The translations under genes were made by a program, and so were the position numbers. A DNA stretch of 39,259 bases, filler included, from an uncultured Methanosarcinales archaeon (GTDB lineage Archaea; Nanobdellota; Nanobdellia; Woesearchaeales; CAIVOO01), in assembly GCA_964485195.1 (NCBI GenBank). It is 12 parts of 12 records of this genome, joined end to end, with 100 filler letters (N's around TTAATTAATTAA, not from the genome) between each part and the next. Parts side by side here need not be neighbours in the genome. Positions count along the whole stretch, not along the records: positions 1 to 4,147 come from CAZAIK010000021.1; 11 more parts are not named here. One strand, 5' to 3'. How positions within the stretch are numbered: the first letter of the stretch is position 1; each line of letters opens with the position of its first letter. Of this stretch, positions 1-10,107 are shown piece by piece. A model generated the notes under the pieces. It saw nothing but the letters and a program-made list of their open reading frames with translations, was not told the DNA's origin and searched no databases.

Positions 1-200
1 ATTATAGCGTTTAAAAAAGATACCCTTCTTGGTTATTTTATTGTTGATGTTAACAAAAAAAATTTAACTCAAGTTTCCCTTACCAGAGTTTATCAAAAAA
101 CTTTTCATACTGCCCTTATTCTCTCCGGCTAAAAAAAGAGAAATGCCTTGATATCCTGATCCGTTAATATTGGGTTCCAGGGGAGGTCGCCACGCTCATT

Positions 201-791
201 TCATTCGCTCGCAATAGAGGTGTCCCTTTGGGGAACGTCCCCCTGTTCTTTTTTATCGACCATTTCTAATTTTTTTATATATTCATTTTTTAGAAATTGA
301 TATTTTATTATATCACCTGCCATAACTATGTTGTTTAAGTTGTCTAAAAGATACAGCTTTATATTATCATTAGTAAATTCTTGTTTTATTACCAAGATGT
401 CATAATTTTCAAGTGATTTATCAATATAAAATTTTATATAACTATATGATTTTTCCTTTGTTATTAGGCAAAATACAATTTCACGAATACTACTTAGTGT
501 GAGATAAAAATCATATATCTCTTTCATCTCTTCTAAACACATTAAACAATCAAAATTCATTTCATAAACTAATTTGAAACTATTCTGTATTTTTTCTGAA
601 TCAAATGGCATATATCCGTTGCTTGTAAATCTTTTTATATTATTTGAAACATTAAATTCTTTACCTATTTGGGAATTTATTTTTTTTATAATGGGCTCTT
701 TTGATTGAATTTTTTTTACATGATGAACAATGAAGGGTATTGATATAAATAAAGCTATAATAAATATTGACTTGCATGTATTTCTTAACAT
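201..791 (-). CDS. Membrane-anchored thioredoxin-like (CxxC) hypothetical protein
   Basis: N-terminal hydrophobic segment, FDCLMC motif, and C-terminal KLYLLDNLNNIVMAGD resembling the last strands of Trx-like proteins found beside BF3164-family genes. Confidence 0.6.
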   Translation of the reverse strand: MLRNTCKSIFIIALFISIPFIVHHVKKIQSKEPIIKKINSQIGKEFNVSNNIKRFTSNGYMPFDSEKIQNSFKLVYEMNFDCLMCLEEMKEIYDFYLTLSSIREIVFCLITKEKSYSYIKFYIDKSLENYDILVIKQEFTNDNIKLYLLDNLNNIVMAGDIIKYQFLKNEYIKKLEMVDKKEQGDVPQRDTSIASE

Positions 792-894
792 AGGGATAAA
801 TTACAAGGAATTATTAATTTAGAAAAGTTTCCTTTTTGATAGAAGTGGTCTCTTTATTAAAATGCTGCTATTAATCTGGGTAGGATTTCTATAG

Positions 895-1086
895 TCATGG
901 ACAAGGACCAGATTCTAAATAATAGTAATTGAAAATATTGCCAGTAGGAGTAACACAGTAAGAATATCGTTGAAAACAGCACGTTCCAGTTGGAGGAGCC
1001 GATGAAATTACGTGGATTGTACAAATAAAAACTAAAACTACTAGAAATATTACTAGACTTATTGATTTTAATGTTTTTTTGCTCAT
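895..1086 (-). CDS. Small secreted cysteine-rich peptide (63 aa)
   Basis: RBS AAGGAGG; Sec-type signal peptide, then APPTGTCCFQRYSYCVTPTGNIFNYYYLESGPCP (CC-x6-C-x17-C); co-oriented in operon. Confidence 0.8.
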   Translation of the reverse strand: MSKKTLKSISLVIFLVVLVFICTIHVISSAPPTGTCCFQRYSYCVTPTGNIFNYYYLESGPCP

Positions 1087-1123
1087 TTTACCCTCCTTTT
1101 TCGATGGTTTTCTTCCTTTTAAT

Positions 1124-2269
1124 TTATATCCCTAAGTTAGTTTTTTCATCATAGTTAAATTTTAATATTTCACTTTCTGTTACTCCAAAAATTGTAGACC
1201 CATCATCAGATATAGTCATTTGATAAACTTCTTTATCTAATTCAATTTGTTCTATAATTATTCCGTTATTATCTAGAACATAGATTATATTGCTGGAATT
1301 AGGTTCCTTGTTTTCTTTATTGTATTGATACTTTCCCGAATATAGCAAAAACAATCTATCTAAATTTTTGCAATAACAAATATCAAGATATCCAAACCTG
1401 GTTTTTTTATTATAAGTCATTGTATGGTAATCTCCAACTGGTACAATTTCGTATTCAGGGAAAAATGAATCAGGACCATAATAAGTAGAAACTAGTTTTT
1501 CATTTTCAATATTATACTTCTCAATTATAGCTCCATACCTAGTTGCTATAAATATTTCTTTGGATTTCTCTTTGAAAATAAATTTTCCAATAAAACCATG
1601 TGAATGTTGAGGCCCAAATCTTTCTTTTTTTAAGATAACGGGAATTTTACCAATGCTTCTAATAAAATCACCATTCATATTATAGATTGATATTCTTCCT
1701 TTAAAAAACGCTCCAACTCCAATTATTTTCTCATCTGGTGTTATTAATAAATGAAAAGGAGCCCCGTTTCCATTTATTATTTCAATGATTTTATCTGGTT
1801 CAAATTTATCATTTAGAATTTCAATTATATTATACTTTTTTGATTTCCTTGTTGTAACATCGAATATCCAGAATACATTTTTATCTTTTGGATCGGGAAT
1901 TATTTCAGAGGCCCCAATAAATTCGTTTGGTCCTTGTCCTAAGCGGCCAAACGATTTTAACAATTTAGTTGATTTTAAACTAAATATTTTAATTATTTTG
2001 TCAGCCTTATGGTCAATGCACAATAGATAATTATTAATTATTGTGATAGAAACCGGAGCATAAATATCAATATTATTAAATACACTTGAATAAAGTTTTT
2101 CTATTTTATTTGATTTTATCAGTTTTTTATAATTGATGTAGTTGTATTTTTTTGATCTGTCCGAACACCCTGTGAATATGATTACAAAAATGATTAAACA
2201 TAGTAATGATTTTACTCCTAATTGTTCAATGAGACTTCCCATCCCTCTTCGGATGAAAATTGAGGTCAT
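1124..2269 (-). CDS. BF3164/TolB-like 6-bladed beta-propeller lipoprotein
   Basis: Lipobox IFTG-C; SFGRLGQGPNEF motif; YLDICY..RLFLLYSG and IYVLD..G blades; start moved to ATG 2269 behind RBS AAAGGAG. Confidence 0.8.
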   Translation of the reverse strand: MTSIFIRRGMGSLIEQLGVKSLLCLIIFVIIFTGCSDRSKKYNYINYKKLIKSNKIEKLYSSVFNNIDIYAPVSITIINNYLLCIDHKADKIIKIFSLKSTKLLKSFGRLGQGPNEFIGASEIIPDPKDKNVFWIFDVTTRKSKKYNIIEILNDKFEPDKIIEIINGNGAPFHLLITPDEKIIGVGAFFKGRISIYNMNGDFIRSIGKIPVILKKERFGPQHSHGFIGKFIFKEKSKEIFIATRYGAIIEKYNIENEKLVSTYYGPDSFFPEYEIVPVGDYHTMTYNKKTRFGYLDICYCKNLDRLFLLYSGKYQYNKENKEPNSSNIIYVLDNNGIIIEQIELDKEVYQMTISDDGSTIFGVTESEILKFNYDEKTNLGI

Positions 2270-2348
2270 CTTTCTCCTTTCAATCACATGCAATGAGATA
2301 TATTTTCTTGTTAATTTCAATCTATGTTTTTATCATTATATTATATAA

Positions 2349-2364
2349 AGCAAGATTTGTGCCA
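2349..2364 (-). promoter_or_regulatory. Sigma54 (-24/-12) promoter
   Basis: Minus strand reads TGGCACAAATCTTGCT, matching TGGCAC-N5-TTGCW; lies between the activator gene and the propeller operon, pointing into the operon. Confidence 0.85.
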
Positions 2365-2437
2365 CATCTCTATTAAACAGTATTTGCAAGAATCTAAACA
2401 AGTTAGATTTACCTCTTAAAAATAATAAGACTCCTTT

Positions 2438-2478
2438 AGTCGAGCTCTAATCCGACTTAAGCGAGCTAGGGCTCGACT
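2438..2478. promoter_or_regulatory. Inverted repeat (terminator of activator gene or upstream activator site)
   Basis: AGTCGAGCTCTA (2438-2449) / TAGGGCTCGACT (2467-2478), 11/12 complementary; directly after activator stop, about 75-115 bp upstream of the -24 element. Confidence 0.45.
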
Positions 2479-2479
2479 T

Positions 2480-3499
2480 TCAGCGAAGGTTGAAGTGCCT
2501 AATAATATCAATGAATTTCTTATAATCCTCCTTGCCCTCTCCCGCATTAAATAAAGATAAAAGCTCTTTATAGGAGCCTCCTGTTTTCTTAAGACCAAGG
2601 GAGATTATTTCTTTTACCTCTCTGCGGTTAAGCTCTCTCTTAAGAAAAGGCTTGTGAACTACCTCCCAGAAACTCTTACCGCCATGAACCATCTTATGGA
2701 AAAGGTTTGTAACCACATCTTCTTCTCTATCGATTGGAGGTTCAATCTTTATATCATCGGGCTTTATTATATTCCCTTCAGCCATAATAAAGGCTCTTAA
2801 TATAATGTTTTCAAGCTCCCTTATATTACCGGGAAATTCATAATCCAGGAGTTTTCTCATGGCCGGGGGAGACATCTTTTTACTCACCTTGTTCCTCTGC
2901 ACTGCCTCTCTTAATATCTCATCTACAAGCAAAGGAATATCCTCTCTCCTTTCTCTTATGGGAGGGATGTATATTTCAAATACATTAAGCCTGAAATATA
3001 AATCCTCCCGAAACCGGCCTGCTTTTACTTCCTCTTTTAAATCTTTGTTGGAAGCTGCTATTATTCTAACATCAATCTCTATCTCTTCTTCTCCTCCAAG
3101 ACGGAAAAACTTCCCTTTATCCAGAAATAGAAGAAGTTTTGACTGACACTCTGAACCGAGATCGGAGACTTCATCTAAAAAGAGAGTGCCCCCGGCTGCA
3201 ATCTCAATTTTCCCCACCTTCCTTCCCACTGCACCGGTAAAAGCACCTTTTTCATGACCGAAGAGTTCACTTTCAAAAAGCTCTTTTGGGATATTGATGC
3301 AGCCTTGTTGAAGAAAGCGCTTATTTTTCCTCCTGCTTAAACGATGGATACACTCTGAAGCCATAGATTTGCCTACTCCTGTCTCCCCGGCGATAAGAAC
3401 CGGGCAATCGTTGCGGGAAGCTTTATGAATCAGGCGGTTTACTTCCCTTATTGCTTGACTCTTTCCTGTCAAGCCATTTAAGGCCGGCTTCAGTACCAT
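2480..3499 (-). CDS. Sigma54-dependent activator (bEBP) lacking an N-terminal regulatory domain
   Basis: Walker A GETGVGKS, ESELFGHEKGAFTGA, GTLFLDEV, RFREDLYFRLN, FPGNIRELEN; starts directly at the AAA+ domain; non-Fis C-terminus SFWEVVHKPF..GGSYK. Confidence 0.93.
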   Translation of the reverse strand: MVLKPALNGLTGKSQAIREVNRLIHKASRNDCPVLIAGETGVGKSMASECIHRLSRRKNKRFLQQGCINIPKELFESELFGHEKGAFTGAVGRKVGKIEIAAGGTLFLDEVSDLGSECQSKLLLFLDKGKFFRLGGEEEIEIDVRIIAASNKDLKEEVKAGRFREDLYFRLNVFEIYIPPIRERREDIPLLVDEILREAVQRNKVSKKMSPPAMRKLLDYEFPGNIRELENIILRAFIMAEGNIIKPDDIKIEPPIDREEDVVTNLFHKMVHGGKSFWEVVHKPFLKRELNRREVKEIISLGLKKTGGSYKELLSLFNAGEGKEDYKKFIDIIRHFNLR

Positions 3500-3929
3500 C
3501 TTTTCCCCCCTCCAAGTTATTACACTTCTATAATATATTCACTCATTACTGTTATCAAGCTTTTTCCGGCTTATGGATCTGGAAATAGTTGCATTTTTTA
3601 TATTCTTTTTTCTTAGAAATTATTCTTTTATTATTTTCTCCAACCCGGGTATTTTCTTTTCTACTCGAATCTTTCCCTCAAAGAACCCGGGAGAATTTCT
3701 TATAAGTAAGAGTTCCACCCTCTCCCCTCCTTATCCACAGCTTTCCCTCTTTTCTCATCTATTTAGTCGGAGGAGGAAGGAATGATCGGGAAAATATTGG
3801 AAAAAAATTATATTACAGGAAAAATTATGATTCTTTTTCTCTAATAAAAAATTCCTTCCAAGTAGTAGGATTCAAAAAATATAAAACAACTTTCCCTCAG
3901 AAACACGATAAGGTAACATGATGATGTGA

Positions 3930-4001
3930 TGCACCTCCTGCGGGAGTCTAAAGTATGATAGACTACCCGCAGTGTCAAATAATTTAAATTATGGAGGTGC
4001 A
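3930..4001 (+). ncRNA. Structured non-coding leader of IS110 element (candidate bridge-RNA portion or RBS-sequestering hairpin)
   Basis: TGCACCTCC (3930-3938) pairs with GGAGGTGCA (3993-4001); nested stem TGCGGG-AGTCTA / TAGACT-A-CCCGCA. Confidence 0.4.
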
Positions 4002-4004
4002 CAA

Positions 4005-4147
4005 ATGGATTATATGGGAATTGACCATCATAAGCAATACTCACACATCACATTGATGGACGAGAAGGGAAAAAAGCTCAAGTCCGGCAGAGTGGCTAAC
4101 TATTACTCAGAGTTGGAGAAGTTTCTTGATGGAAAGAGAGAGGTTAA
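4005..4147 (+). mobile_element. IS110-family transposase, 5' fragment (cut by contig end)
   Basis: MDYMGIDHHKQYSHITLMDEKG..GRVAN fits the DEDD/RuvC-like N-terminus (GID motif); RBS GGAGG. Confidence 0.8.
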
Positions 4148-4247: not shown

Positions 4248-4308
4248 ATTCAGTGATCTCAACCCGGACTTCTTCCAAAGGATTCTTTTTGAATTTACTT
4301 ATCAGCAT
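4248..4308 (-). CDS. PC4/p15-like DNA-binding protein, 5' fragment
   Basis: Manual translation MLISKFKKNPLEEVRVEITE, resembling the PC4-family KN..EE.RV...E start; runs into contig end. Confidence 0.5.
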
Positions 4309-4387
4309 CTTTTTTTTCCAAATAAATCGCATATCCCATAATGCCAAAAACTAAAATAATCATTCCCCAAAATATGTAAACAAACAT
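4295..4387 (-). CDS. 30-aa single-TM peptide
   Basis: RBS GGAGGTG; MFVYIFWGMIILVFGIMGYAIYLEKKDADK; overlaps next start. Confidence 0.55.
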   Translation of the reverse strand: MFVYIFWGMIILVFGIMGYAIYLEKKDADK

Positions 4388-4468
4388 TTTTTCACCTCCA
4401 TTTTAAGCCGGAGGCACCGGTCGCAAGCAAGTCCCGGCACCTCCATTTATAAAAAAAACATGAGATCC

Positions 4469-4813
4469 TCAATCAGGGATAAGGTCATTATCCTCTGAGT
4501 CTTCGTTATCTGAATCAGGAATCAATTCATTTTCATCCTGATCCTTCTTCTTTTTTTTCTCTTCCTCAATTCCTGGGATTAATTCATTTTCATTTTTCAA
4601 TTTTTTCTCCTTTTTGATTTTTTTTTGTTCTTCTTTTAGTTCTTTTTCAGCCTTCCAAGATTCATAATCCACTTCACTTTTTATGATTTTTCCGAACTCT
4701 GGATCCTTTTCTAATTCATCCTTTGAAAATATTTGACTAGGCTGAAGTTTCCTGGCCCTTACTTGAAAAATTAACTCTGATATGTCTATTTTTTTTTCAT
4801 CCATTTTCATCAC
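4469..4813 (-). CDS. Hypothetical protein with three (E/D)N(E/D)LIP repeats
   Basis: ATGA overlap with upstream gene; ENELIP, ENELIP, DNDLIP in acidic tail. Confidence 0.7.
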   Translation of the reverse strand: MMKMDEKKIDISELIFQVRARKLQPSQIFSKDELEKDPEFGKIIKSEVDYESWKAEKELKEEQKKIKKEKKLKNENELIPGIEEEKKKKKDQDENELIPDSDNEDSEDNDLIPD

Positions 4814-5655
4814 TCCATGATTTTGACTCTGTCTGAAGAAATTCTGTGCGTGCCAAAACTTGATACATCAACACTCAAGGGTCTGAGAGTCAAGACAACA
4901 GTGACTTGATCATCTTCATTGAACTTAGAGAGCTGCTCTAAAAATGAAGGGACAAGGCCCTGGGGTAGAATGGGGTCAAACTGGATTTTCCTGGCCTCTT
5001 TTACAGGCATCCGGTCCCACCTATAGCCAGAGGTCAAGGCCTTCCCGGTTGTGAGCTGAAGCCGGTGTTCCATCTGCTGAAGATCACTTCTTGTGCTGTG
5101 ATAGTCTTCAAAGAAAATAGACATCTCTCTATCAGCAAATTCCTTGAGCTTCTCAAGAGTTTCCTTCAGGATCATACCAGGCTGCAATAAGAGCTGTCTC
5201 ACTCGATGCTGAGTCTTTATGAGTTCATGTTCAATGTTCATGATCTCAAGACGCTTTTTCCGTATAGCTTCAAGGCTTTGAGATAGTTCTTTTTGTGTTT
5301 GCTCAACGGCTTCTTTTTGAATATCAGCTTCTCTTTTTCCTTTAGCTTGGAATTCTTTGAGACTGATTTTTCCTTCTTTGACATCTGCTTCAAGTGGAAT
5401 ACCCTTCTTTATTGATTTTTCTTTTTCCTTTAAGATTTTGGACTCAAGAGCCTGAAATTCATCCTCCATTTTAGAAACAACTGAATTAGCTTTTTTCAAT
5501 TTTTCCTTGAGTTCTTTTTCTTTTCTCAACGCACCACGCATGTTTTCTTCAAGTTCTTTTTTCCTGGCTGAAGCTTCTTTTTCTTTTTTAGCCCATTCAT
5601 CCTTAACACGCTTAACCAAATCAGGGATTGAATCAATTCTTATTCCTTCACTCAT
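4810..5655 (-). CDS. Coiled-coil hypothetical protein (paralog of 6279-6983)
   Basis: Start reassigned to MSEGIR; shared C-terminal motifs SG[YF]RW, EAR, DPI.P, PS.LEQLS, VTV. Confidence 0.8.
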   Translation of the reverse strand: MSEGIRIDSIPDLVKRVKDEWAKKEKEASARKKELEENMRGALRKEKELKEKLKKANSVVSKMEDEFQALESKILKEKEKSIKKGIPLEADVKEGKISLKEFQAKGKREADIQKEAVEQTQKELSQSLEAIRKKRLEIMNIEHELIKTQHRVRQLLLQPGMILKETLEKLKEFADREMSIFFEDYHSTRSDLQQMEHRLQLTTGKALTSGYRWDRMPVKEARKIQFDPILPQGLVPSFLEQLSKFNEDDQVTVVLTLRPLSVDVSSFGTHRISSDRVKIME

Positions 5656-5776
5656 TTTCTTCTTCCTCCTGTTCTTTGGCTTTTTTCCTTTCCTCAATTA
5701 TTTGTTCTCTTTTTTTCCTTTCCTCAATTTTCTCAAGGTCAACTTCCCTAGTAGTAATAAACTTTTTTTCTTTCAT
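5648..5776 (-). CDS. Small charged protein (42 aa)
   Basis: RBS GGAGGT; MKEKKFITTREVDLEK..; overlaps next start. Confidence 0.6.
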   Translation of the reverse strand: MKEKKFITTREVDLEKIEERKKREQIIEERKKAKEQEEEENE

Positions 5777-5842
5777 TTTTACCTCCATTTTAAGGGGGGC
5801 CGGGTTAAGAAAAAGAAGTCCAGCCCCCATAAGTCAAAGAGT

Positions 5843-5995
5843 CTATTTTTTACCGAACAAATCAATGCCGGCAATATGCCAGAGTAAACTTTCAAATAAG
5901 CACTGCTTGCCTCTTTCGGTCTGCATAAAAAACCGGCAATTTTCACATTCCAAGTCCTTCCGGAACGGACACTCTTTTTTTTGTTTTTCATTCAT
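5843..5995 (-). CDS. 50-aa Cys4 (putative zinc-binding) protein, not in ORF track
   Basis: ATGA overlap with upstream stop; MNEKQKKECPFRKDLECENCRFFMQTERGKQCLFESLLWHIAGIDLFGKK. Confidence 0.65.
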   Translation of the reverse strand: MNEKQKKECPFRKDLECENCRFFMQTERGKQCLFESLLWHIAGIDLFGKK

Positions 5996-6276
5996 TTTTT
6001 TGCATCCTTTATGTAGTTTTCGATGATGTCTAAATCATCCTGTTTTAAATCCTGAATCGGAGTGACTCCATTTTTTCTGTATTCACCTGAAGCCATACGT
6101 GTAACCTCAAACCCACCTTCAATTTTGATGCTGTCTTTACCAGGAAAAACGTTTCTCAAACCAGCTTCAATTTGTTCTGGTTCTGGCCCTTCAAGGCTCA
6201 TATCATCAACATCAAATTCCTTCTTATCGCCTTCAAGACTCATGTCCTCAATAATATCGTCTTTTTTTTCACTCAT
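5992..6276 (-). CDS. Acidic hypothetical protein with duplicated DMSLEG motif
   Basis: RBS GGAGG; starts 2 nt after upstream stop. Confidence 0.7.
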   Translation of the reverse strand: MSEKKDDIIEDMSLEGDKKEFDVDDMSLEGPEPEQIEAGLRNVFPGKDSIKIEGGFEVTRMASGEYRKNGVTPIQDLKQDDLDIIENYIKDAKK

Positions 6277-6278
6277 TA

Positions 6279-6983
6279 TTAGCCCTCCGATTTTATATTT
6301 GATTTGACAACTCTTGATTCCCCAAAAACTTGGTGAACTTCAACCGGCAATCCAGGATAAAAGAAACCCTTCTGGTGATAACCAACAGTCACTTTTTCTC
6401 CATCCGGGATTTCAGAGAGCTGTTCAAGTAAAGATGGGATCTCTTTCTCAGGAAAAATAGGATCGTGTATCAGCAGCCTTGCTTCTTCTTTGCTGAGATT
6501 CTCCCACCTGAAGCCTGAACTCATACCGGATTTTGCTTTTTCAGCAAGGGATAATTTGTGTTTGATCTGATTTTTTTCGTAGTGGAACTGTCCGCCGCTC
6601 TCCTCAAGAATCTGTACTATTTCATATTCAACGAACTTAGCTAATTCCTTGTATCTATCTGCAAGAAGCTTTCCGGGATAGGTCAAGAAATGGAAAATAT
6701 TCTCTCGCAGCTCACAAATTTTTAGCTCTTTTCGGATTAACTCTGTTCTGAGTTTCCTTATTTCAGGATCCGGTTCATCCAGACTGGCTTTTTGTTCGAG
6801 TTTCTCTATAGCCTTTTTATCAATCTCAACCTCTGCTTGAAGTGACTTTTCTTCTTGTAATAGCTTCTGAAGCTCTTTTTGCTTTGACTTTTCAAGGTCT
6901 AGAGCTTTTTTCTCTTCCTTTTTTCGCAGCTCTTGACATCTTTGAATCAAGTTGAACATAGATTCATTTCTTTGTTTCTTCAT
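6279..6983 (-). CDS. Coiled-coil hypothetical protein (paralog of 4810-5655)
   Basis: RBS GGAGG before MKKQRN (alternative start 6959); shared C-terminal motifs. Confidence 0.8.
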   Translation of the reverse strand: MKKQRNESMFNLIQRCQELRKKEEKKALDLEKSKQKELQKLLQEEKSLQAEVEIDKKAIEKLEQKASLDEPDPEIRKLRTELIRKELKICELRENIFHFLTYPGKLLADRYKELAKFVEYEIVQILEESGGQFHYEKNQIKHKLSLAEKAKSGMSSGFRWENLSKEEARLLIHDPIFPEKEIPSLLEQLSEIPDGEKVTVGYHQKGFFYPGLPVEVHQVFGESRVVKSNIKSEG

Positions 6984-7149
6984 CGCTTTTTTCCTCCGTT
7001 TCTTCCTTTTCAACATCAAACTTTGGCTGTGGTAAATTGATAGGCAAGTCGTGTGTGCTCAGAAACGTGTCTCGCTCTCTCTGCTTTTTCGGCTGTAGGT
7101 TTGAAGTCGTGATAATTCTTTTTCCCTTTTTTTCTTTTGTTTCAGTCAT
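6964..7149 (-). CDS. Small charged protein (61 aa)
   Basis: RBS GGAGGT; KRIITT echoes KFITT of 5648-5776. Confidence 0.6.
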   Translation of the reverse strand: MTETKEKKGKRIITTSNLQPKKQRERDTFLSTHDLPINLPQPKFDVEKEETEEKSDEETKK

Positions 7150-7252
7150 TTTGTTACCTCCACATTTATTTTATTTTAGAGGGGAAAGGGGGACAATCCC
7201 GGAGTCCACGCAAGCAAAATGTCCCCGGTATATAAACCTTTACCTTTCCCCC

Positions 7253-7507
7253 TCATTTTTTGTGTTTCCTTTGTTTTCTTCTCTCTAAATAATCAGGATA
7301 CAACCGGCCATCCGGGCCGATATCATTCGTTGAGATAAATGAGACTTTCCGTCCTTTTATCTTGTCAACAGAACTCCAGATTGACTTTCTCAACTGATAA
7401 ATCAAATCGTTAAGATCACTCTGGTCATAACCTTTTTCATACATGACGCTGGGATTAGGCCTAACGATTTTGATTCCTAGTTTTTTAAGCATTTCAACGA
7501 ATTTCAT
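7253..7507 (-). CDS. Hypothetical protein
   Basis: 84-aa ORF starting 11 nt after terminase stop, same strand. Confidence 0.6.
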   Translation of the reverse strand: MKFVEMLKKLGIKIVRPNPSVMYEKGYDQSDLNDLIYQLRKSIWSSVDKIKGRKVSFISTNDIGPDGRLYPDYLERRKQRKHKK

Positions 7508-7518
7508 TTGTCTATTTT

Positions 7519-8340
7519 TTAATCATTTAAGCCAAAAACTTCATCCAAACTGGGGCCTATTGCAAAAGCACCTTTTTTCCCTTTTCTTGTAGCCATGACA
7601 CAAGCTCCGGCTGCTGAATTAGCCAGGTCATCATGCAAACCCTGAGGATGGTCCACACTGTCTTTTTGTTTCCCTGTTCTTCTCTCTAATTGCCTGAGTT
7701 CTCCGGTTTGACGTTTATGATCCAGGAGTTCAATCTGCTGCTGCATAACTAAGGGTAAAAACTCCAAGTAAATATCACTTTTTGAAAGCTCACTGTTTTT
7801 ATAAGTGATTCCTTCTTTTTCAAATTCAGAAGAACACCAGGAGCCAGAATAACGGTCCCCTTCACAAGCTTTGAGTCCATAGCTTTTTAGCACCTTTGCA
7901 AAGTCTTTGACTGCATCCTGAGGTCTGAAAGGTGGATATTTAGCACGTATGCAGCTCTGGATGATTTTCCCGGATTTCTCTCTAAAACACACTGAAAGGG
8001 TCATTGCATCACCCCGGCCCCCTGAAGGATCCACAAAGGCAAAATGAGAGCGCCCCTCAGTCTTCTCAAGCTCAAAACGTCCGGGAATAACTACAGCATC
8101 AAGTGCTTCAGTTGAAAGAAATGTTTCAAGATCTTCTCTGAACTCTCCAAAATATTCAGCCCTGGCCGCTGAAAAATCTGACTTTAAAGCCTTGTCAATT
8201 GTGCTTTTCTTATATGTGGGATTCATGTCCAGAGTCCCAGCCCTCCAAATCAGTGTCTCAGGATCCTCTGTCCCGTATTTATCCCGGTATGCTTCATAGA
8301 GAACACCTGTCCGGCTGTATCCTGTGCTTATCCCTAAAAG
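7519..8340 (-). CDS. terL: Terminase large subunit-like protein, C-terminal part (5' truncated)
   Basis: Frame open to contig edge ([21 protein letters not shown]); [38 protein letters not shown] fit an RNase H-like terminase nuclease domain. Confidence 0.8.
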
Positions 8341-8443
8341 GNNNNNNNNNNNNNNNNNNNNNNNNNNNNNNNNNNNNNNNNNNNNTTAATTAATTAANNN
8401 NNNNNNNNNNNNNNNNNNNNNNNNNNNNNNNNNNNNNNNNNAG

Positions 8444-9439
8444 AACCTTATCTTCACCCCCTACCCGGAATACGACCTGCGGGATCAGGCTCAGGTGAAT
8501 GCATTTTTCCACAAGGAAAAACCGGACTACGTATTTCTGGCTGCTGCCAAAGTGGGCGGGATCATGGCCAACAGCACCTATCCGGCAGAGTTTATTTATG
8601 ATAATATCATGATCGCTTCCAATGTTATTCATGCGTCGTATAAAAATAAGGTAAAGAAGCTGTTAAATCTGGGCTCATCCTGTATATACCCCAAAATGGC
8701 TCCCCAGCCCCTGAAAGAAGAGTATCTTTTGACCGGCCCCCTGGAACCAACCAATGAACCTTATGCCATTGCCAAGATCGCAGCCATAAAATTATGCCGT
8801 TATTACAATAAGCAGTACGGAACCAATTTTATTTCCGTTATGCCCACCAACTTATACGGTCCTGGAGATAATTTTGATCTGGAAACTTCCCATGTGCTGC
8901 CTGCCCTGATCCGTAAAATGCATCTGGCAGCATGTCTGGAAAATAATGAATTCAACACTATCCGAAAAGACCTGAAACAGTATCCCTTTTCAAAAAAAGA
9001 AATATATTCAGATTCAATGACTGATGAGGATATTCTAAAATTATTACAAAGCTTTGGAATAATTCGTGATAATTCGTGTAATTCGCGGACTGCTTCTCTC
9101 ACCCTATGGGGCAGCGGCTCTCCCCGCCGGGAATTTCTCTATGTGGATGATCTGGCGGATGCAGTGGTGTTTCTTATGCAGAAATACCATGCTTCTGATA
9201 TCGGGGAGTTTGTTAATATCGGGACCGGAAAGGATATTCCCATAAAAGAACTGGCTGAGATGGTCCGGGATATTGTGGGATTTAAAGGAAAAATTGACTG
9301 GGATACGGATAAACCGGACGGCACGCCCCGGAAGCTGCTGGATGTGGGGAGGATCACTACATTAGGGTGGCAGGCAAAAACCGGGCTTACGGAAGGGATT
9401 GGGAAAGCTTATTTATGGTATAAGGAAAATCAGGAGTAA
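8444..9439 (+). CDS. fcl: GDP-L-fucose synthase (5' truncated)
   Basis: FLAAAKVGGI, LGSSCIYP, PTNEPYAIAK, MPTNLYGP, SHVLPALIRK, KPDGTPRK. Confidence 0.95.
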   Translation, partial: NLIFTPYPEYDLRDQAQVNAFFHKEKPDYVFLAAAKVGGIMANSTYPAEFIYDNIMIASNVIHASYKNKVKKLLNLGSSCIYPKMAPQPLKEEYLLTGPLEPTNEPYAIAKIAAIKLCRYYNKQYGTNFISVMPTNLYGPGDNFDLETSHVLPALIRKMHLAACLENNEFNTIRKDLKQYPFSKKEIYSDSMTDEDILKLLQSFGIIRDNSCNSRTASLTLWGSGSPRREFLYVDDLADAVVFLMQKYHASDIGEFVNIGTGKDIPIKELAEMVRDIVGFKGKIDWDTDKPDGTPRKLLDVGRITTLGWQAKTGLTEGIGKAYLWYKENQE

Positions 9440-9528
9440 AGAATACTAATGGATCGTTCAGAAGAAAATATATATCAAAGTCAAGTTATTAGAAAAGACA
9501 ATACATCTTAATGGTAAGTGGAGGAAAA

Positions 9529-10107
9529 GTGAGCAAAGATGTTTTTATACATCAGAGCAGTTTTGTTGATAAGGATGTGAAAATCGGAAAAGGAACGAAA
9601 ATATGGCATTTCAGCCATGTTCAGTCTGGTGCTGTGATTGGTGAGCATTGTACACTGGGTCAGAATGTCAATATTGGGAATAATGTAAGGATCGGCAATT
9701 ATGTAAAGATTCAGAATAATGTTTCTGTGTATGAAGGGGTGGAATTAGAAGATTATGTATTCTGCGGTCCTTCCATGGTGTTTACAAATATTCTAGATCC
9801 CCGCTGCAAGTATCCTCAAAAAGGTTCGGAATTTTATGTAAAAACTTTGGTCAAAGAGGGAGCTTCCATTGGTGCCAATGCTACCATAATATGCGGTAAT
9901 ACCCTGGGAAAGCACTGTTTTATCGGAGCAGGTTCAGTAGTAACCAAAGATGTGCCGGATTTTGCACTTATTGCCGGTGTGCCAGGCAGGATTGCAGGAT
10001 GGGTATGCGAATGCGGCAGTAAGCTTGATTTTAAAACAGAAAAAATAAAATGTAGTAAATGCGGTATTAAGTATGAGAAGAAAGAAGATGTAGTTAAGCA
10101 GATATAG
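9529..10107 (+). CDS. wbpD: WbpD-like UDP-2-acetamido-3-amino-2,3-dideoxy-glucuronate N-acetyltransferase
   Basis: Hexapeptide repeats, KIWHFSH, KIQNNVSVYEGV, CGPSMVFTN, C-terminal CECG..CSKC; GTG start behind GGAGG. Confidence 0.85.
   Translation: MSKDVFIHQSSFVDKDVKIGKGTKIWHFSHVQSGAVIGEHCTLGQNVNIGNNVRIGNYVKIQNNVSVYEGVELEDYVFCGPSMVFTNILDPRCKYPQKGSEFYVKTLVKEGASIGANATIICGNTLGKHCFIGAGSVVTKDVPDFALIAGVPGRIAGWVCECGSKLDFKTEKIKCSKCGIKYEKKEDVVKQI

Follow-up and report, generated by a model that had tools for sequence, protein, structure and literature searches.

A sigma54 activator unit beside a cassette of propeller, cysteine peptide and thioredoxin-fold genes

Contig C21 occupies positions 1–4147 of the 39,259-nucleotide stretch analysed here (the window; 12 small contigs of assembly GCA_964485195.1 joined end to end) and contains all of a locus in which a sigma54 enhancer-binding activator gene is followed, on the same minus strand, by genes for a beta-propeller lipoprotein, a small cysteine peptide and a membrane-anchored CxxC protein. 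This arrangement raises the question of whether the activator governs the genes behind it, and what those genes would do together. An initial annotation took them for a self-contained peptide system under dedicated sigma54 control. The four open reading frames (ORFs) lie where it placed them, and the three cargo genes are indeed more AT-rich than the activator gene (G+C contents of 0.272 for the propeller, 0.318 for the peptide and 0.247 for the CxxC gene, versus 0.414). However, comparison of sequences from related loci divides the locus into two separable modules: a portable unit of activator, boxes and promoter, and an AT-rich cassette of propeller, peptide and thioredoxin-fold genes. For the copy in the window we lean towards control by a sensor-less activator, over an operon whose products would include an exported disulfide mini-protein and the partners that fold and bind it.

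The activator, its boxes and its promoter

The activator gene (2480..3499, minus strand) encodes 339 amino acids and shows the AAA+ features of sigma54 enhancer-binding proteins: a PF00158 AAA+ domain (E 5.5e-63) with Walker A at residue 38, GAFTGA at 85, Walker B at 106, an arginine-finger segment at 164 and sensor II at 223. The NCBIfam models for NifA, NtrC and PspF match the AAA part, below their cut-offs. The protein has no N-terminal sensor or receiver domain, and the ORF begins 8 residues before the AAA match. An in-frame stretch upstream, interrupted by four stops, scores 7.1 bits against the N-domain profile of the family, above all 300 shuffles, and may be a weakly recognisable remnant of that domain. 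The N-terminal domain of the subfamily is missing in 8 of 40 complete activators, and the four best BLAST matches of the window activator are short or truncated at a contig edge.

The AAA+ domain with GAFTGA is shared with sensor-less activators of the PspF type and with GAF-type activators such as NifA and NorR. The C-terminal domain, in contrast, has neither a Pfam match at E ≤ 1 nor a sequence match in the PDB; matches to protein A repeats are noise. By eye, its helix-GG-helix-turn-helix arrangement resembles the Fis-type helix-turn-helix (PF02954). This domain is common to the activators of the window and of loci L064 and L065, and its profile gives 110 matches in 57 of the 151 genomes searched. 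The 102 matches examined comprise a first set, which together with the window and L065 activators numbers 63 (61 matches, three seeds included), a held-out set of 38, and three more left out for short flanks. A search of viral contigs with the activator returned generic sigma54 activators only, with 34–46% identity over the AAA part.

The consensus −24/−12 promoter proposed initially at 2349..2364 (minus strand) is the sole match to the strict pattern in the window, with none in 100 shuffles. Transcription is predicted, from the position of the −12 element, to start near 2338, and the motif lies intact 80 nucleotides before the likely start codon of the propeller gene. Sigma70-like matches are near chance (24 versus 17.4 ± 3.8). 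Two palindromic 20-bp boxes, the predicted activator sites, lie between the activator stop codon and the promoter. Box 1 (2459..2478) starts one base behind the stop, and box 2 (2438..2457) lies 21 bp from it. Measured from the predicted start site, their centres are ~110 and ~131 bp upstream, within the 80–150 bp that is typical for binding sites of such activators (PMC7910581). In many relatives such tandem 20-bp palindromes, usually spaced by 21 bp, likewise abut the activator stop, and a third copy often follows ~80 nucleotides further on. This placement of boxes and promoter directly downstream of the activator's own gene is a further difference from PspF, NifA and NorR. So is the lack of any visible anti-activator gene on C21.

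The arrangement recurs throughout the subfamily. A sigma54 motif on the same strand within 450 nucleotides behind the stop accompanies 33 of the 63 activators (reverse strand, 1; shuffles, 0.65) and 25 of the 38 held-out ones (reverse strand, 0; shuffles, 0.62). The boxes also covary with the last helix of the C-terminal domain. Among the 28 of 63 activators with clear boxes under a fixed filter, from which the code was derived, an Asp five residues after a conserved Tyr is paired with CG at box positions 4–5 in 7 of 7 cases, against 0 of 21 for other residues; with Thr, Arg, Ser or Ala the dinucleotide is mostly TA, and with Asn it is mostly CT. Eight of the 38 held-out activators passed the filter, five had a residue for which the code makes a prediction, and all five predictions were right (permutation p 0.03), in what is a small test. 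Relatedness probably does not explain the whole of this pattern, because Asp with CG falls in three separate places of a tree built without the last helix, and because two near-identical paralogues in one genome (G056) differ in both residue and box. Boxes that change between paralogues in step with one helix residue again set the subfamily apart from PspF, NifA and NorR.

The window activator carries the Asp and its boxes carry the CG. This is the best evidence that it acts on the adjacent promoter, and together with the family-wide statistics it makes it likely that the activator drives the promoter in this copy. The activator would bind the pair of palindromes that follows its gene and switch on the −24/−12 promoter, which would drive the cassette operon; lacking a sensor, it would be either constitutive or limited by its own expression. 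Should the code linking helix and box hold, it would supply simple recognition rules for a DNA-binding domain that lacks annotation, and the subfamily would offer naturally orthogonal pairs of sigma54 activators and operators.

Several observations weigh against this regulatory reading. No motif is found, even with two mismatches allowed, behind 30 of the 63 and 13 of the 38 activators. Unclear boxes or an unreadable helix removed 35 of 63 and 30 of 38 from the code comparison, the code allows several dinucleotides for some residues, and the tree is a quick version with many open forks. A metagenomic contig from run X2 does run from the activator through boxes and promoter into the propeller start without differences, although this run comes from the same study as the best-matching one and is possibly not independent. 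In an oil-field run (X4), in contrast, the cargo with its promoter and the activator lie on separate contigs, and the junction is unbridged. Finally, of the 15 related loci for which DNA upstream of the cassette is available, just two, the window and L064, show a sigma54 motif there.

This last count also decides the broader claim. Because the motif is present in only 2 of 15 loci, the promoter is not intrinsic to the cassette, and sigma54 control as a defining part of the peptide system was rejected: elsewhere the upstream regulator is of AraC type or none is evident, and unrelated cargoes lie behind other members of the activator subfamily. In L061/L062 the cassette has AraC-family genes on either side (L061:5968-6486 and 8804-9559), and in L068 one precedes it (L068:8593-9372); these genes may represent a second type of regulator for the same cargo. 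The proposed neighbourhood of the propeller fared better in its other part, since peptide and thioredoxin-like genes do co-occur with it, as described below.

The scarcity of the unit allows a further explanation, namely that a recent rearrangement placed it beside a cassette that it does not control, or that it is inactive. The unit is absent from most cassette copies, a fragment of an IS110 insertion sequence lies nearby, and contigs from run X3 join DNA upstream of the activator to sequence resembling the far end of the cassette. This explanation is hardly credible, however, given the intact promoter, boxes that match the helix type of the activator, and the recurrence of the pairing in L064, where an activator of the same type, a different protein with different boxes, precedes a promoter and the same three gene families in another order.

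Sigma54 control presupposes a suitable host. A gene for sigma54 (rpoN) is present in all five host genomes tested, and no rpoN match was found in the assembly that contains C21 (one genome, 99.5% complete by markers). This assembly is archaeal, as indicated by ribosomal protein L31e and by the archaeal appearance of its larger contigs on inspection. Because the assembly is archaeal and without an rpoN match, C21 is most likely a mis-binned bacterial contig; an origin of the locus in the archaeal genome of its bin was rejected. The closest relative of the propeller among genome contigs (69% identity, locus L002) sits among housekeeping genes whose clusters include proteins named Candidatus Aminicenantaceae, and the host of C21 is probably Aminicenantia-like. 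However, a CxxC protein 96% identical to that of the window occurs on a short contig labelled Atribacterota, which may point elsewhere. DNA of C21 is present in microbial-mat and oil-field metagenomes.

The three-gene cassette

The propeller gene (1124..2269, minus strand) probably starts at ATG 2269, behind AGGAG, although the ORF can be extended to TTG 2320. The protein combines the features of TolB_like/BF3164-type propellers: a PF15869 match above the cut-off (E 6e-24; 85.3 bits versus 29.2), a six-bladed NHL/TolB-like fold, and a lipobox-type FTGC, the Cys of which is kept in 78% of 143 alignment rows and from which the protein is predicted to be a lipoprotein. The model has a mean predicted local distance difference test score (pLDDT) of 95.8, and NHL domains are its best fold matches (Z 24.4), followed by the amidating lyase PAL and, at Z 20.7, by a DUF4221 protein from Bacteroides. 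In Bacteroidota, TolB_like/BF3164 propellers, DUF5128 propellers (PF17170) and NVEALA peptides are neighbours in loci to which no function has been assigned. The window propeller resembles these in passing the PF15869 cut-off, and differs in its Aminicenantia-like host and its sigma54 unit.

The fold match to PAL raises the possibility that the propeller is a peptide-modifying enzyme, with a modified peptide as the product of the cassette. In both fold searches PAL takes third place (Z 22.4, root-mean-square deviation 3.7, 277 residues aligned), and an HSH motif is found in at least 90% of the close propeller family. However, the His positions are mixed (His in 33 and in 64 of 143 sequences) and no His is invariant, NHL domains that are not enzymes score better than PAL, a gene for a partner hydroxylase is absent, and the peptides lack a conserved terminal Gly. 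An enzymatic role of this kind is therefore highly improbable.

The peptide gene (895..1086, minus strand) encodes 63 amino acids, with a hydrophobic leader that looks by eye like a signal peptide and a core of ~34 residues with a CC-C-C frame, and has no Pfam match. A search with the single sequence finds just one relative (92%), and the ESM Atlas gave weak leads only (0.81). A profile built from eight close peptides finds 74 homologues, including named ones from Ignavibacteriaceae, Longimicrobium and Roseivirga. Of 73 homologues, 71 fit the pattern (T/S)CC-C-C; both cysteines of the CC pair and the last Cys are invariant across the 74, and the middle Cys is present in at least 90%. The leaders differ widely while the frame of the core is constant. 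One homologue (P0226; 1 of 74) joins an NVEALA leader (PF14055) to a core of the window type, which bears out the link to NVEALA-type peptides drawn in the initial annotation to the extent that this core is among the cargoes behind such leaders. The window peptide itself has no PF14055 match or leader motif, and none of the eight close peptides matches that family. Two paralogous peptides (P0190 and P0193) have adjacent locus tags in an Ignavibacteriaceae genome.

The CxxC gene (201..791, minus strand) encodes a protein without a Pfam match, and its profile has no sequence match in the PDB. In the model (pLDDT 84.6) an N-terminal helix, the predicted membrane anchor, is followed by a thioredoxin fold with the CxxC (C82/C85) at the start of the first helix; the fold matches are to peroxiredoxin, Sco, ResA and TlpA-type proteins (E ~2e-5). 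The CxxC is present in 23 of 24 distinct sequences, the exception being a frameshifted fragment. Fold, CxxC position and anchor are those of TlpA/ResA/DsbE-type enzymes. These enzymes also have a cis-proline, which the CxxC protein lacks: a Pro occurs within the four residues before the third core strand in only 1 of 23 sequences, with the position taken from secondary structure of the model and not from a superposition.

The three genes recur together. Loci were collected with an alignment of the CxxC family from metagenomes, and with the peptide profile and a reverse search from 301 genomes. Five of the seven metagenomic loci have propeller, peptide and CxxC genes in that order; in one a peptide-CxxC pair lies behind IS21 genes, and one is truncated by the contig end. 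The peptide profile identifies 10 places in 8 of the 301 genomes, or 8 independent loci when two near-identical pairs are taken into account. A propeller of the close family adjoins all 10, in keeping with the co-occurrence expected from the window, and a CxxC gene is present at 8, with one copy frameshifted and one separated by a transposase gene. The remaining two comprise one place that ends at a contig edge and one that lacks the gene. The reverse search gives 11 places in 9 of the 301 genomes, of which 8 coincide with loci already counted, two abut contig edges, and one has propeller and CxxC genes without a peptide. The gene order varies, and L059 and L064 begin with the peptide gene. 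The G+C content of the cassette is below that of its flanks in 9 of 9 loci.

The distribution of the cassette is patchy. The CxxC family was not found in 41 relatives of genome G001, the peptide was found once among 401 genomes of a phylum sample, with only 14 candidates scored for each, and a plasmid search gave no match for propeller or peptide. No significant RNA structure is predicted downstream of the CxxC gene (z +1.4). Further, unrelated propeller cassettes adjoin some copies (L047:26-2420, L065:11993-14557 and L046:4164-5746), some with a Cys-rich peptide or a thioredoxin-like gene, which suggests islands that collect such cassettes. In L048, a 65-residue Cys/Ser/Gly-rich ORF (846-1043), resembling the precursor of a ribosomally synthesised and post-translationally modified peptide, lies between the CxxC gene and another propeller gene.

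Possible roles of the peptide

In the reading that we favour, the operon would export the small peptide, the membrane-anchored thioredoxin-fold protein would close its four cysteines into two disulfides, and the propeller lipoprotein would hold or present it. The end role would most likely be that of an extracellular effector, in antagonism or signalling. Points against this proposal are to be added to those raised for the promoter. No exporter or leader peptidase is encoded inside the cassette, the propeller is solitary in L002 and L037, and L151 has propeller and CxxC genes without a peptide. Disulfide catalysis by the modelled CxxC protein is plausible but not safe because of the missing cis-proline, a residue that is more conserved than the CxxC in oxidoreductases and may prevent metal binding, according to PMC2757866.

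Comparison of 12 gene triplets bears on how the three products would be related. The identities of propeller and thioredoxin-fold protein are strongly correlated (rho 0.83; 0 of 5000 permutations), whereas those of the peptide core follow neither the propeller (rho 0.21, p 0.19) nor the thioredoxin-fold protein (rho 0.02), a comparison of low power, with ~30 residues in the core. At the level of sequence, these values fit a stable handling pair of propeller and thioredoxin-fold protein with exchangeable peptides better than they fit cognate immunity.

Cognate immunity is nevertheless the main alternative, in which the peptide would be a disulfide-bonded bacteriocin and the propeller lipoprotein its immunity protein. 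The parallel is with bacteroidetocins (class IIf), four-cysteine peptides that need a neighbouring thiol oxidoreductase for full activity, as reported in PMC6671954; in the window, too, a small four-Cys peptide gene lies beside a gene of thiol-oxidoreductase type. The cassette is patchy, AT-rich and near insertion sequence or resolvase genes, the activator subfamily also fronts clusters with C39 peptidases and radical-SAM enzymes, and the solitary propellers could be orphan immunity genes. On the other hand, neither a double-glycine leader nor an ATP-binding cassette (ABC) transporter or peptidase or a five-helix membrane protein is found on C21 or at the cassette loci, as far as the fetched flanks reach, and the window has a propeller lipoprotein, whereas the word 'propeller' is absent from the main text of the bacteroidetocin paper (PMC6671954). 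Conservation of the core moreover extends across phyla, with up to 69% for distant homologues in the aligned region. Because peptide cores do not track propellers in the 12 loci, within the low power of that comparison, the cognate pairing is without support, and we regard toxin and immunity as an unlikely role.

A second alternative takes the tightly co-diverging propeller and thioredoxin-fold protein, which also occur together without the peptide in L151, as a split form of a known fusion. In SOQ1 and NHLRC2 a thioredoxin-like domain and an NHL propeller are joined in one protein. The same two folds are encoded in the window by separate genes of one predicted operon, and the pair would form an envelope redox or metal complex in which the peptide serves as a dithiol shuttle, metal carrier or subunit. 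Chains of NHLRC2 and of a 'quenching protein' are among the fold matches, Sco-like and peroxiredoxin folds rank top, and the lack of the cis-proline would allow metal to bind at the CxxC. However, the likeness is one of fold, and the window proteins differ in being bacterial, predicted to be exported and encoded alongside a peptide gene. The fold matches are also generic, with TM scores of ~0.4–0.5 by query length for the thioredoxin-fold protein and many propellers at Z 18–24. The leaders and cores of the peptides vary more than those of a fixed subunit would, and the regulator family mostly fronts genes for secreted peptides and natural products. A redox or metal complex is quite unlikely.

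Each part of the locus, taken singly, belongs to a known class, whether sigma54 activator, TolB-like propeller or thioredoxin fold. As a whole, it falls outside the bacteroidetocin clusters, the NVEALA family and the canonical TlpA proteins, from each of which it departs in one of the features compared. No earlier description of the activator subfamily, the regulatory unit or the cassette was found in searches of the open-access literature; PMC10723553 mentions TolB_like merely as enriched, and PMC10352776 makes no mention of propeller, thioredoxin, TolB or sigma. With its three genes, the cassette is a compact model in which TolB-like/DUF5128 propellers, a group of unassigned function, could be studied together with their small Cys-rich neighbours.

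Related cargoes and the surroundings of the contig

The genes behind related activators were assessed from 55 of 69 listed downstream proteins. Radical-SAM enzymes lie behind eight promoters of the subfamily. Other cargoes include DUF5128 propellers, AhpC/TSA-like proteins, a C39 peptidase, a non-ribosomal peptide synthetase module, a kinase and a leucine-rich repeat protein. At least seven further loci contain a different pair of propeller and thioredoxin-like protein, mostly with a small exported peptide. Judged by its predicted cargoes, the subfamily precedes numerous clusters for peptides and natural products in Aminicenantia-like bacteria, and its profile is a handle for finding such clusters in this uncultured lineage. 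In Myxococcus, natural-product genes are known to be under sigma54 control (PMC7910581).

These observations lead to a wider proposal, which we put forward tentatively, as attractive but still somewhat doubtful. Aminicenantia-like bacteria would possess portable, mutually orthogonal sigma54 units, each with its own operator pair and promoter, the specificity of which is reset when the boxes and one or two last-helix residues change jointly, and which are plugged in before clusters of secreted-peptide, propeller or radical-SAM genes. The cassette would then be one member of an undescribed class of disulfide mini-protein and propeller, acting as ligand and receptor, across several phyla.

Genes for precursors of the double-glycine type stand right behind activators of the subfamily in L078 (G164:C5, where they form a row), L114 (G052:C32) and L111 (G067:C5). 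Ser/Thr-kinase genes follow the activators in L091, L096, L112 and L108, three of which have no downstream promoter motif, and these activators are possibly a kinase-linked branch. A conserved branch with the helix motif YPRF (L172, L183, L184, L187 and L190) is followed by the same pair of exported proteins of ~176 and ~186 amino acids, the family of which is unassigned.

Upstream of the activator, the IS110 end noted initially is a real 5' fragment of a transposase gene (3972..4147, plus strand; PF01548 E 4e-5, under the cut-off), truncated by the contig end. The two ends of C21 are neither direct nor inverted repeats of one another. Other small contigs of the same assembly (C17–C32 of G000) carry bacterial-looking genes, including lipopolysaccharide sugar enzymes, radical-SAM, VWA-like and sulfatase-like genes, and a block of contaminating bacterial contigs is probably present in the archaeal bin, although its marker contamination is 0.56%. 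A separate contig in the window (4248-8341) consists of short coiled-coil ORFs, with two paralogues of 295 and 246 amino acids; one ORF resembles by eye the C-terminal part of a phage terminase, with no convincing Pfam match.

The X3 contigs mentioned above link DNA upstream of the activator to a flank like that downstream of the cassette, with joints from 3804 to 58 and from 3900 to 119 (window 58-250 and 3745-3900). Such joints would fit a dispersed repeat or units arrayed head to tail; activator and cargo do occur as tandem units in L099 and L101.

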